Sequence record: PQ435593.1
Length of the DNA: 45,245 nucleotides
Direction: 5' to 3' (one strand)
DNA from: Escherichia phage vB_Eco_K-01
The translations under genes and the position numbers were made by a program. Under the pieces are notes generated by a model, which was not told the origin of the DNA, did not search any database, and was given only the letters and a program-made list of their open reading frames with translations. Positions 1 to 45,245 of the stretch are shown in pieces. How positions within the stretch are numbered: the first letter of the stretch is position 1; each line of letters opens with the position of its first letter.

Positions 1-510
1 TTAACGTTCACCGGACACCACCTTAATTGTTACTTCGCTGATTGGCTCGTCGCGTACTTCTTCGGCGACAACTGTTTTATTCAGGCCCAGTTTCGCGGCA
101 GCAAACGTAGCAGAGATGCCCGCGGCCCCCGTTTCAGTGAAGTATGCCTCTTCCAGCGCCTGTGCTGTCTCCCAGGCTTCTGCAAATGCGGGAATCTCAC
201 GCAGCCAAAGCTTAATAATAGGGATAGTGACGCCGATGTGTAAGGCGAAGCGGGCCAGTGATGGCGGTTTATCCTGAATCAGCGGGCGTTCGTCACCTTT
301 GGACGTGGGCACAAGCTCCCACGACGTGCGGTCAAAGAAACGAATCAATTCGTCGCAATAGTCCGGGTCCCACAGCGCAGCGGAATTACGGGATGATTGA
401 TAAAGGCTCTGTTTACCGCGCGGTCGTTTACGGCGACGGTTTGCGCTAACAGCTTCTTCATGTGCAGCTTGTACCACCTCTGGCGATGGCTGCTTAAGTT
501 TCAGCTTCAT
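1..510 (-). CDS. putative terminase small subunit
   Basis: ORF immediately upstream (minus strand, across the circular junction) of the large terminase. Start moved from the track start at 549 to the in-frame ATG at 510, which has an AAGGGGA ribosome-binding site. Basic N-terminal segment (RRRKRPRGK). Assignment is positional only. Confidence 0.4.
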   Translation of the reverse strand: MKLKLKQPSPEVVQAAHEEAVSANRRRKRPRGKQSLYQSSRNSAALWDPDYCDELIRFFDRTSWELVPTSKGDERPLIQDKPPSLARFALHIGVTIPIIKLWLREIPAFAEAWETAQALEEAYFTETGAAGISATFAAAKLGLNKTVVAEEVRDEPISEVTIKVVSGER

Positions 511-600
511 AGAATCCCCTTGCATATGCGTCTGACCATCAGAGCGCACCAGACGCGCCCTACGCGTCTAAAGGGATTATATAAGGGGATTGGGCGGGAT

Positions 601-628
601 GTACAGAAAAGCCCTCCGTAGAGGGCTT
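601..628 (-). terminator. rho-independent terminator (minus strand)
   Basis: Stem AGCCCTC / GAGGGCT with a CGTA loop, followed on the minus strand by a T-rich tract; lies just downstream of the last early-operon gene (687-959). Confidence 0.45.
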
Positions 629-686
629 GTATCAGTTATATAGGCCGTGGCGTGGCGCTCGTTTACCGTCGCCGCCGTAATGGTCG

Positions 687-959
687 TTAGCTACCGCTAT
701 AACCCAGGCATTCGGAAAGACTAAAAGTTGCATTAAATTCCTCAAGGTCTATTTTACGAATACATGGTGAAAGGCAATCAGCGAAAACCAACTCACCAGA
801 ATCAATAACGACGAATCGCCAGCCTTTGAATATGTTCTCGGAAATACCCTCCGCAACTTCGCGTACATTAGGCATGTGTTCTGGGAAATCGCGGAAGTTT
901 CTGGACAAAAATTCAAGTGCCTCACACCGGTTTATGTGGTAGTTATCATATTCAATCAT
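687..959 (-). CDS. hypothetical protein
   Basis: 90-aa ORF in the tightly packed minus-strand early operon; its start overlaps the stop of the upstream gene. Confidence 0.45.
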   Translation of the reverse strand: MIEYDNYHINRCEALEFLSRNFRDFPEHMPNVREVAEGISENIFKGWRFVVIDSGELVFADCLSPCIRKIDLEEFNATFSLSECLGYSGS

Positions 960-1192
960 TCCCCGCTCTCCTCTCGCGCAATGCGTTGCTCTGTTTTAGT
1001 GATACCACGGCGCGTGAATAACACCGGGCTTGTCTTAACGTGCGTCATCAGACGGTTGTTATAAATTACATGGCGTTCGCAATCAACGTCTTTGCTGTAC
1101 TTGGCAATCGTCATCTCATTGATGCCGGTTTGACGGCATGTCTCCGCCATCGTGCCAAATTCTTCAATCAGGTTCGGAATGCTGGTAATCAA
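956..1192 (-). CDS. hypothetical protein with HTH-like segment
   Basis: 78-aa ORF; the segment TMAETCRQTGINEMTIAKY looks like a helix-turn-helix; 4-nt overlaps with both neighbours. Confidence 0.4.
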   Translation of the reverse strand: MITSIPNLIEEFGTMAETCRQTGINEMTIAKYSKDVDCERHVIYNNRLMTHVKTSPVLFTRRGITKTEQRIAREESGE

Positions 1193-42454: not shown

Positions 42455-42462
42455 ACTATAAG

Positions 42463-42482
42463 AAAGCCCCTTTCGGGGCTAT
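42463..42482 (-). terminator. hairpin (attenuator or terminator) between the portal and head-morphogenesis genes
   Basis: Stem AGCCCC / GGGGCT with a TTTC loop; only a weak T-tract on the minus strand. Confidence 0.3.
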
Positions 42483-42490
42483 AGGTGAAC

Positions 42491-43972
42491 TTACTGCTGA
42501 GTGGTGTCCTGTTGCTGCGCCGACTGCGGAATCTCTCCCGCTACCTGAGCAACAGAACCCAACGGCAGAGGTGCGTCTTCAATAGCGTTCTGAATGTCCT
42601 CATCTGTCCAGTCAGTCACACCTGCCTTGCGCAACGCAGCATAGTAAGCGGTGGCGGGTAGCAGGCCAGCGTTAATATCCGCCATCCACTGAGCGCGGTC
42701 CTGAGCTGTCATAGGTTGCAGGAAGAATTCCATATTCAGCTTGAACTCAATCTCAGTATCTTCACTAAGCCCAAGCATACCCGCAACCCACTTTAGCGCA
42801 TCGGTATATGCCATGCTTACGTTACGTGCAATTGTCGCCATAACGGACGTGTCGGCACCACGTTGCAGGCGGGCTGATTCAGCGGTGATTTGCTGGGTAG
42901 GGGTGATAAGCTGCGCACCAATCTGGATGGCCTGATTCTCTTTATCCAGCATGTTCTGCTTGGCTAGGTTGTTCTCACCGGCCTGGACCAGAAACGCATT
43001 GCCGCCGTAACCGATGTTATGGCCAGAACGTGACCCCATACGCACTCCGTGCGGGTTGGCTTCTTTCCATTGTTCCATGCTCATGTTCTCACCGGGGGCG
43101 ATGAACAGAGTAGGCTGGCCTACGACGAAGCTGGACTCCTCATTGTCTGCACTGTTGCGGAAATGCCCAATATTAAGCTCAGCCAACGGCAGCAAAGGTG
43201 CATCGTCAATGGTTGCATCGTTGTTGCTTGCACCAATGAACGTGAACGGGATTTTGCCGCGTAACTGTTCGCCGAGTTCCGGGAAGATTTCGATTACTTC
43301 GCCCTGAGCGCCGCCCTCGGCGTCGAAACGGTAAATGCGCTGGCGGTAGCGGCCATCAATCAGGTCAAGGACGCGGTACTGTTCACCGAACTTAGTTTCG
43401 AACTCTGCTCCAGGTTCTGAGTATTCCCACACTTCACGCAACACGACCATTGTCACACGGTTAACAGAACCGACGCGGGTCAGTCGCCAGTTGATGATGT
43501 TCTCTGCGGTGTAGAATGCGATGACCGGGTTTAATAACCCGGCGTTCTGTTCAGCTGCCGTTGCGGCAGCAGTCTCCGGGGCGTCAACCAGCAACCCACC
43601 ACGTCCTATCGAGTTAATCTCCATTAGCGTATCCTGTGCGTGCTGCCACAGCCCGACACCAGAACCGTCCGCGTTACGTAACAGGTACTCCAGTTCAGGC
43701 GGTATAATCTGCTCGGGGTCTTTGCGCATGACACTGCCGACCATCCCCGCCAGCGTTCTCTTGGTGAAGTTGTAACAGATAGCGCCGTTCTCGTATTCTT
43801 CCTGGCGCTGTGCCGCGTAGGTCGGGTCCGGCTCATTCTTCCCAACGTTGCGCAGATAGCGGATAAGGTCGCCTTCCAGCGCGTGGCGCACCTTCTGCCA
43901 TTTATCGAAGTGGTGCAGCCATTCCCGGTGTTTTGTCTTAACACCCTGATTCTGACCGTTCATAGTTAACAT
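42491..43972 (-). CDS. portal protein
   Basis: 493 aa; position immediately downstream of the large terminase and upstream of the head-morphogenesis gene; acidic Q-rich C-terminus. Confidence 0.7.
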   Translation of the reverse strand: MLTMNGQNQGVKTKHREWLHHFDKWQKVRHALEGDLIRYLRNVGKNEPDPTYAAQRQEEYENGAICYNFTKRTLAGMVGSVMRKDPEQIIPPELEYLLRNADGSGVGLWQHAQDTLMEINSIGRGGLLVDAPETAAATAAEQNAGLLNPVIAFYTAENIINWRLTRVGSVNRVTMVVLREVWEYSEPGAEFETKFGEQYRVLDLIDGRYRQRIYRFDAEGGAQGEVIEIFPELGEQLRGKIPFTFIGASNNDATIDDAPLLPLAELNIGHFRNSADNEESSFVVGQPTLFIAPGENMSMEQWKEANPHGVRMGSRSGHNIGYGGNAFLVQAGENNLAKQNMLDKENQAIQIGAQLITPTQQITAESARLQRGADTSVMATIARNVSMAYTDALKWVAGMLGLSEDTEIEFKLNMEFFLQPMTAQDRAQWMADINAGLLPATAYYAALRKAGVTDWTDEDIQNAIEDAPLPLGSVAQVAGEIPQSAQQQDTTQQ

Positions 43973-43984
43973 TGAATAATCCTC

Positions 43985-45245
43985 TTAAAGTGCGAAAGTC
44001 ACCGGGACATTAATAACTGGTTTGCGAATCGGCATTTCATACGCGATAGGATATGTGGTCCCGTCGTTCTGGTGGTCCACACCACCCGATTTATCCGGTT
44101 CGCCGTTCTTGTCGTAAGCCTGTTGCTCAAGGCATCGCGCCGTAACCGGGCATGCCTGCTCATTAATCATGACCATACCAGATTCAAGCGCCTTGTTCAT
44201 TGCTGATACGCGGTCTTTAACCGGCGGGTTTGTTGATTTGGCGCGTACTTCGAAACCGGCCTGCTGTAACTGAGCGATGTCTGAGGTACTGGCGTTGTTG
44301 CTTTTACGGTTTTTGCCGCTGGCGTCCGGGTACATAACGATATAGTGGCCCTTACTTTTCCATCGCTCAGTTATGGCCCGCACTACGTCAGGCGTATCGA
44401 ACATATCAACCAACTCGGCAACAGCGTGCCAGACCTTACCGCGTTGCACGTAAACCGTGCTCGCCATGTGACCTACGTTAAAGTCCTGCCCAATATACAG
44501 AGTCTCGCCGGGATTGATTGTTTCGCGACTGCTGTTTTTCCTGCGGTCGTAAGCATAGTATACCGTTCCGGACGTGAGGTTTACGAACTTGCCGTCGATG
44601 TAGGCGTCAATCAACTGACCTGGGTATGTGTCGCGTAACGACTGCACATAATCTTCTGGCAGGAACGGGTTAGACAGGGTGGACGCCTGAATCATCTCGT
44701 AGCCTGGATTCTTTTTGACTACCCAGCGGTCATGTACGAAACGGAATCCTTCCGGGGTAGTGAACACGGAAACGGTATTAGCAGGTTTCGGTGTAATAGG
44801 TTTATATGTCCGCGGCAACTGGCGGTTACGGGCGATGACTTTGTTCCACGCGTGCTCGGCGTGCTCCATGTTAAGGGTGTCCAACTCGTCGATTTTCGCA
44901 CGAAACGATTCGTAGCCAACGATTCTTGCTGGATTATCAAGTGTACGCAGAACAAAATCCCCAAATTGTCCGGAAGACGTATAGATTATGTTGTCAGACT
45001 TGTTGTATTTGTACCGGATACCCCAGTCGGTGAGCTTTTCTTCCATACGCGGTGCAAGGATGAGGCGCACCAGGTCATAGGTCGGCTCATACATGGCGAT
45101 GATAGAATCGCTACCACCTTCCATGCTGTCGAGTAGTGCAGAGTTGCACATAACTTCGGATTTACCCGTACCGAAGCCAGCTACGAATGCCGGAAACTTG
45201 CAATGCATACCGAGAAACGCGCCTTGCGGCTCCGTTGCCGTGATA
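43985..45245 (-). CDS. terL: terminase large subunit (N-terminus crosses the window junction)
   Basis: Walker-A-like AGFGTGKS close to the N-terminus. The reading frame stays open to the window end, and an in-frame GTG with an AGGTGG ribosome-binding site lies at about positions 9-11 if the window is joined end to start. Confidence 0.8.
   Translation of the reverse strand, partial: ITATEPQGAFLGMHCKFPAFVAGFGTGKSEVMCNSALLDSMEGGSDSIIAMYEPTYDLVRLILAPRMEEKLTDWGIRYKYNKSDNIIYTSSGQFGDFVLRTLDNPARIVGYESFRAKIDELDTLNMEHAEHAWNKVIARNRQLPRTYKPITPKPANTVSVFTTPEGFRFVHDRWVVKKNPGYEMIQASTLSNPFLPEDYVQSLRDTYPGQLIDAYIDGKFVNLTSGTVYYAYDRRKNSSRETINPGETLYIGQDFNVGHMASTVYVQRGKVWHAVAELVDMFDTPDVVRAITERWKSKGHYIVMYPDASGKNRKSNNASTSDIAQLQQAGFEVRAKSTNPPVKDRVSAMNKALESGMVMINEQACPVTARCLEQQAYDKNGEPDKSGGVDHQNDGTTYPIAYEMPIRKPVINVPVTFAL

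Follow-up and report, generated by a model that had tools for sequence, protein, structure and literature searches.

A Kagunavirus genome record opened inside its large terminase gene: contiguity across the junction, a 77-nucleotide duplication in the capsid gene and the probable mode of packaging

The terminase genes at the record junction

The record of Escherichia phage vB_Eco_K-01 (PQ435593.1), a stretch of 45,245 nucleotides (nt) that was analyzed whole and is called the window here, begins and ends within a pair of terminase genes, terS for the small subunit (TerS) and terL for the large one (TerL). By sequence comparison, the window is a complete Kagunavirus (Guernseyvirinae) siphophage genome, almost identical to that of Escherichia phage vB_EcoS-phiEc3 (MZ576217 / NC_073323). 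The two share ~99% nucleotide identity and are collinear over the whole length in opposite orientation, with the same gene order and the same terS-terL overlap; identity per segment ranges from 96.5 to 100% and is 100% around terS/terL. Other Kagunavirus records cover 85-99% of the window. An earlier note, made from the letters alone, had taken the window for a complete circular map, probably circularly permuted or arbitrarily opened, in which the TerL frame continues from the last base into the first. The features at this junction are the following:

1..510, minus strand: terS, 169 amino acids (aa), with ATG at 510 and TAA at 3..1; annotated as terS in relatives
1..11, minus strand: first 11 nt of the TerL gene, with its GTG start at 11..9, overlapping the last 11 nt of terS
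18..24, minus strand: TerL ribosome-binding site (RBS) AAGGTGG, within the 3' end of terS; invariant in Kagunavirus and Jerseyvirus relatives
43985..45245, minus strand: remainder of the TerL gene, nt 12-1272 of the wrapped open reading frame (ORF) including the stop, from frame translation across the join

The first three bases of the window are the terS stop codon (TAA, bases 3..1). The minus-strand TerL frame is open from its stop at 43985-43987 through base 45245 with no in-frame stop, as the earlier note had it, and its further claim of an in-frame GTG with an AGGTGG site beyond the join proved accurate: joining 45245 to 1 adds 11 nt up to the GTG at 11..9, and six nt separate this codon from AGGTGG (23..18). 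Read in frame across the join, the sequence runs TAA (32..30), CAA TTA AGG TGG TGT CCG, GTG (11..9), AAC GTT AA|T ATC and onwards, and the junction neither loses nor duplicates bases. The wrapped ORF spans 1272 nt (423 aa), of which 11 nt are shared with terS. The position of terS immediately upstream of terL, with this overlap and with the TerL RBS inside terS, is conserved in relatives, and the proposed order of small before large terminase recurs in all those that are annotated. A direct repeat common to both window ends was looked for and not found, and a terminal direct repeat between them was rejected on that ground.

Contiguity of the two ends was examined with a junction query of 564 nt, made of the last 267 nt and the first 297 nt of the window. 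This query matched as one contiguous piece in 345 phage records, with SCS92 at 99.8% identity. Bases 45279-45288 of phiEc3 run through the window junction at 100% identity, and the window in turn runs through the opening of the phiEc3 record, at 45235|45236, at the same identity. Furthermore, independent assemblies derived from SRA (Logan) and from ENA place terS beside an intact 423-aa TerL, and the exact 423-aa protein (P0001) was found on six independent contigs with terS directly upstream. The contiguity of the junction is far beyond chance.

The start of TerL can be read from the same comparisons. The 1272-nt gene with its 11-nt terS overlap is annotated in SCS92, RP180, XY1, dunkel and PST-H1, and every record opened elsewhere than at this point calls a TerL of 423 aa. 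The sequence AAGGTGGTGTCCG-GTG is unchanged from Kagunavirus to Jerseyvirus, and the GTG is invariant in six relatives. TerL codons 5-16 stand between the terS stop and the internal ATG; of their 12 variable columns, 10 are third positions, and 11 of the 12 codons keep their amino acid. TerL homologues (n=16, down to ~63% identity) are 417-427 aa long; T8 and Q11 are invariant among them, P10 and F14 nearly so. The 16 upstream codons are under purifying selection. The sole TerL start codon inside the window is ATG 45208, codon 17 of the wrapped ORF, and Jerseyviruses have CTG in its place. Because relatives are annotated in this way, the GTG and its RBS are invariant, the variation falls on third positions and the internal ATG is not conserved, we take the GTG across the junction as the real TerL start, from which the predicted N-terminal peptide would be (M)NVNITATEPQGAFLGMHCK. 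That TerL truly starts at the internal ATG, with an open frame over the junction that is fortuitous, has next to no probability: phiEc3 and other records opened here do annotate a 407-aa TerL from that ATG and the Pfam ATPase match begins only at residue 24, but the ATG has no Shine-Dalgarno sequence upstream and gives way to CTG in Jerseyviruses, while the 16 codons before it are conserved as protein to ~63% identity, including T8 and Q11, vary almost only at third positions and are part of TerL in all records not opened here.

TerL itself is identified by its domains as a terminase large subunit, with a Terminase_6N ATPase, a Terminase_6C RNase H-like nuclease and a Walker A motif. Both Pfam matches are above the gathering cut-off (Terminase_6N, PF03237, residues 24-233, E 2.6e-11; Terminase_6C, PF17289, residues 255-404, E 1.4e-12), and the Walker A sequence GFGTGKS at residues 27-33 is invariant in the 16 homologues. 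A profile search of PDB recovered the D6E large terminase (E 4.8e-6) and, weakly, the SPP1 G2P nuclease; a single-sequence search of PDB gave nothing relevant. The match to the TIGR01547 PBSX family was weak and sub-threshold (33.7 bits vs a cut-off of 105), the comparison with P22 gp2 (hhalign of the alignment against the single sequence) was not significant (E 0.13), and there was no match to the lambda GpA type.

The candidate small terminase that the earlier note had placed at 1-510 is borne out by a match to PHROG 3064, 'terminase' (E 9.6e-76, residues 1-166 of the profile's 175 positions), and by the terS annotation in relatives. Its ATG at 510 is preceded by AAGGGGA at 515-521. Databases differ on this start, giving either GTG 549 (182 aa) or ATG 510 (169 aa); the latter has the good RBS AAGGGGA, more diverged homologues begin at that Met, and residue 1 of the 169-aa form is where the PHROG alignment starts. 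By sequence, TerS matched nothing in Pfam, NCBIfam or PDB, even with the cut-off relaxed to E 10. An AlphaFold2 model of low to moderate confidence (pLDDT, the predicted local distance difference test, 62.6) had P22 gp3 (3p9a) as its top Foldseek match, which was not significant (E 0.4, probability 0.72), and hhalign of the TerS alignment against the single P22 gp3 sequence covered 106 columns at 25% identity (E 0.27), a lead only. In addition, the GenBank record of Schulenberg notes an HHpred match of 99% to P22 gp3 for TerS. TerS is likely to be P22 gp3-like.

The comparison of TerS among relatives revealed a mosaic breakpoint inside terS (window 1-~85). Residues 1-~143 are nearly identical across Kagunavirus, and the C-terminal tail comes in two forms, each travelling with its TerL type. 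The window phage has the tail ...NKTVVAEEVRDEPISEVTIKVVSGER together with a Jerseyvirus-like TerL (~89% aa identity), whereas K1H, EC3-1 and Schulenberg, Kagunavirus members of the other type, have the tail ...GKEKPVESTEETAPTEIIFSVAEPVGKIVTTNMGE.. together with a TerL that is only 54% identical to that of the window. In many Kagunavirus records nucleotide homology to the window starts at ~77-89. The Jerseyvirus terminase module (SETP13, dunkel, PST-H1) resembles that of the window in its TerL (88-90% aa identity) and has the identical GTG start, RBS and terS tail; in contrast, the rest of the window genome is Kagunavirus-like. The two tail forms would fit the idea that the TerS C-terminus contacts TerL.

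One further candidate feature lies upstream of terS:

576..605, minus strand: sigma-70-like promoter candidate TGTACA-18-TATAAT, 10/12 matches, from a consensus scan only

Beside this promoter candidate, in the intergenic stretch 511-640, a G+C-rich hairpin, AAGCCCTC-CGTA-GAGGGCTT, was seen at 609-628; the terminator scan did not call it.

The duplication in the major capsid gene

A second feature that bears on how the record was made came to light in the comparison with phiEc3, in a part of the window away from the junction:

38014-38090 and 38091-38167, no strand: perfect tandem duplication of 77 nt, two copies, 100% match (Tandem Repeats Finder)
37900..39026, minus strand: major capsid protein gene, frameshifted by the duplication

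This is the only tandem array that Tandem Repeats Finder reported in the window (38014-38167), and the copies meet at ...CTTACGGGTCC|CTCGGTGCCG... The duplication shifts the capsid frame after residue 312 and replaces the last 37 residues, such that the ORF as it stands (38034..39026) encodes 330 aa with a nonsense C-terminus. With one copy removed, the gene encodes 349 aa and its product is identical to the phiEc3 capsid protein; the phiEc3 record, unlike this one, has the intact gene and lacks the duplication. All 30 closest relatives among the matches listed have a single copy, with a 461-nt query mapping to 384 nt, and the copy-to-copy junction had no match in IMG/VR. These results demonstrate that the duplication exists only in this record and that it disrupts the capsid gene.

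For 150-nt reads, the default k-mers of SPAdes go up to 77. An artefact of SPAdes contigs of circularly permuted phages has been described, in which an identical sequence of 77 base pairs (bp) stands at each contig end (PMC9409062). The duplication in the window is like that artefact in being an exact 77-nt repeat, and here the removal of one copy restores the gene; it is unlike it in that the copies usually stand at the two contig ends, whereas here they are adjacent and internal. Rotating a contig without trimming its overlap brings the two end copies together, which is what is seen at 38014-38167. An exact repeat of k-mer length, unique to one record, which disrupts an essential gene that is restored on its removal, is what an assembler overlap should look like, and the most likely origin of the duplication is, in our view, a SPAdes k=77 end overlap that was left untrimmed and made internal by rotation. 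A genuine phage mutation is extremely improbable. Tandem duplications do occur in phage genomes, but this one frameshifts the essential major capsid protein, its two copies are 100% identical to each other, its length is that of the top default SPAdes k-mer and of the end repeat already described, and it is absent both from the 30 relatives and, by its junction, from IMG/VR.

On this reading of the 77-nt duplication, the assembly graph would have been circular, with contig ends that originally lay inside the capsid gene and window ends that were chosen afterwards. The proposal of a complete circular map in the earlier note was therefore right as to circularity and wrong as to a clean map, since the window carries 77 redundant bases at 38014-38167. 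The true unit length would be 45168 bp, not 45245.

Opening of the record and packaging of the genome

The openings of related records give a context for the position of the window ends. K1H is opened at its own TerL ATG, Golestan and phiEc3 both at codon 8 of the gene, and KMB35 near codon 16; in the BASEL phages and many Jerseyvirus records the opening lies just before terS, and in other relatives it falls at one of more than 20 unrelated positions, without a non-conventional start in common. This pattern reflects the convention of starting at the terminase and no shared physical end. The TerL start overlaps terS, so that opening a record after the terS stop splits TerL. In phiEc3 (MZ576217), Golestan (NC_042084) and KMB35 (OR525704), which have the same TerL type, the record is opened in the first 16 codons and TerL is truncated. 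The phiEc3 record differs from the window in being opened 10 nt further into TerL, and its TerL is annotated as a truncated protein of 407 aa because the opening truncated the gene. Logan and ENA contigs of relatives, assembled unassisted, break at differing places and none of them at terS/terL; as a proxy for physical ends these contigs are too few, and both of their ends could not be read, such that their support is weak.

Taken together, the start on the terS stop, the different opening of phiEc3, the scattered openings of relatives and the 77-nt mark of the original contig ends agree with the arbitrary opening that the earlier note had suspected. The boundaries of the window are almost certainly not physical ends, and contiguity across the junction, the TerL start beyond it and the arbitrariness of the opening can all be regarded as demonstrated by these comparisons.

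As for packaging, headful (pac) packaging is the best inference and a probable one. It is drawn from the TerL domain type, the P22-like arrangement of terS and terL, and the literature on Guernseyvirinae relatives; membership of this family, together with that literature, likewise suggests that the genome is circularly permuted. PhageTerm predicts pac/headful packaging for the Guernseyvirinae phages Shashou and Schulenberg, Baig et al. place the TerL of K1G and K1H in a cluster beside headful clades, and permuted genomes have been reported for Jerseyviruses. The window gives a circular map without unique assembly ends, which is necessary but not sufficient for headful packaging. A search for pac-like repeats or structure in and upstream of terS yielded nothing beyond short matches of two copies, as expected by chance, for which reason we propose no pac site. 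We know of no pac consensus for the Guernseyvirinae group. The phiEc3 paper gives no assembly or terminus information.

P22 is the archetype of the pac/headful phages; its genome is circularly permuted and terminally redundant. It resembles the window phage in three ways: its terS (gene 3) immediately precedes terL (gene 2), the two overlapping by 23 nt vs 11 nt here; a terminase gene (gene 3) spans the origin of its reference record (NC_002371); and its gp3 is the best, though weak, structural match to the window TerS. It is unlike the window phage in that its record starts at a pac site within gene 3 that was defined by experiment, whereas the window is opened at a codon boundary, in that the window TerL has no significant similarity to gp2, and in that P22 is a temperate podovirus whereas the window phage is a siphovirus.

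Several points weigh against headful packaging of this genome. The PhageTerm call for Schulenberg rests on 7.1-fold coverage, and Schulenberg has the other TerL type. PhageTerm found no obvious termini for another relative, the Kagunavirus fBC-Eco01, and the paper on it speaks generically of cos. The similarity of TerS to P22 gp3 is not significant by either method (Foldseek E 0.4, hhalign E 0.27), and the packaging type assigned to this isolate would be a prediction from its relatives. Genomes with cos ends or direct terminal repeats also yield circular assemblies. This last point leads to the strongest of the alternatives, in which the opening is arbitrary, as argued above, and the DNA is packaged from fixed ends (cos or short direct terminal repeats) elsewhere in the map. 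The published PhageTerm calls in the group are few, one of them at low coverage. We nevertheless think this alternative unlikely, since the openings of relatives' records are spread over more than 20 positions and share no non-conventional start, the predictions for Shashou and Schulenberg are pac/headful, Jerseyvirus genomes have been reported as permuted, and TerL, a protein of the Terminase_6N/6C type, is weakly linked to the terminases of SPP1 and D6E and has no lambda GpA match.

Alternatively, the window boundaries could be real ends of virion DNA, whether a cos cut, the boundary of a direct terminal repeat or a pac series-initiation cut used to orient the record. Some pipelines, PhageTerm among them, re-open a genome at the predicted terminus. 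Moreover, in P22 the small terminase gene contains the pac site, at which the RefSeq record starts, with gene 3 spanning the origin, such that a terminus near terS/terL is not absurd. This reading is nonetheless very unlikely, because the boundary matches the terS stop codon to the base; phiEc3, 100% identical here, is opened 10 nt away, and Golestan, KMB35 and K1H at nearby but different bases; the 77-nt overlap puts the contig ends of the assembler in the capsid gene, away from 45245/1; and the unassisted assemblies of relatives break at various other places. A related speculation, with an even slighter chance of being right, is that the opening is more than a convention and falls on the true series-initiation cut of pac packaging or a few bases from it, that packaging starts in the terS-terL overlap, and that the terS C-terminal tail and TerL form a self-contained, exchangeable 'recognise-and-cut' cassette.

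The explanation that we favor as a whole, and with considerable confidence, is that of a Kagunavirus genome whose circular assembly was rotated to the terS stop with its overlap untrimmed, and whose DNA is probably packaged by the headful mode. The genome would have been assembled as a circle, and the linear contig would have been rotated such that the record opens right after the terS stop codon, by the terminase convention. The cut would fall 11 nt inside the real TerL, whose GTG lies within the last terS codons, and as a result of this cut TerL would wrap around the 45245/1 boundary; its translation would most likely be coupled to that of terS via AGGTGG inside terS. Rotation without trimming of the 77-nt end overlap would have left the tandem duplication inside the major capsid gene. 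Virion DNA would be packaged headful (pac) from concatemers, hence circularly permuted and terminally redundant, with no fixed terminus at the window boundaries.

Differences from phiEc3 and consequences for the record

Apart from the opening and the capsid gene, the window differs from phiEc3 in the body of the tailspike (window 20959-22918) and in a stretch of ~180 nt (5082-5260). The tailspike ORF (20956-23091, minus strand) encodes 711 aa; its body, at 20959-22918, has no nucleotide match in phiEc3, and its first ~57 codons (22919-23091) are conserved at 99%. The difference appears to be the usual kind of swap of a receptor-binding module between genomes that are nearly the same elsewhere. 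The shorter stretch, in the early-gene region, likewise has no match in phiEc3, and the flank 1-5081 is only 96.5% identical to phiEc3 vs 99.3-100% elsewhere. In addition, an Rfam int-alpA RNA motif (RF02996) was found at 31099-31163 on the minus strand (36.6 bits vs a gathering threshold of 35.8, E 4.8e-4), directly upstream of an ORF of 138 aa (30658-31074) that precedes the tape-measure gene. No tRNA or tmRNA genes were found in the whole window.

The phenomenon described here is ordinary and already known: circular maps, terS-terL overlaps and arbitrary openings are textbook material. The practical value of the analysis lies in curation, as it brings out two faults of the record: TerL is split, and the capsid gene is broken by a 77-nt stretch that is most likely an artefact. 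A gene caller run on the linear record reports a TerL of 407 aa that lacks 16 conserved N-terminal residues, and TerL is split or truncated by the opening not only in the window record but also in phiEc3, Golestan and KMB35. The 77-nt probable artefact inflates the genome length by 77 bp, and its removal is advised before the record is used in comparative or synthetic-biology work.

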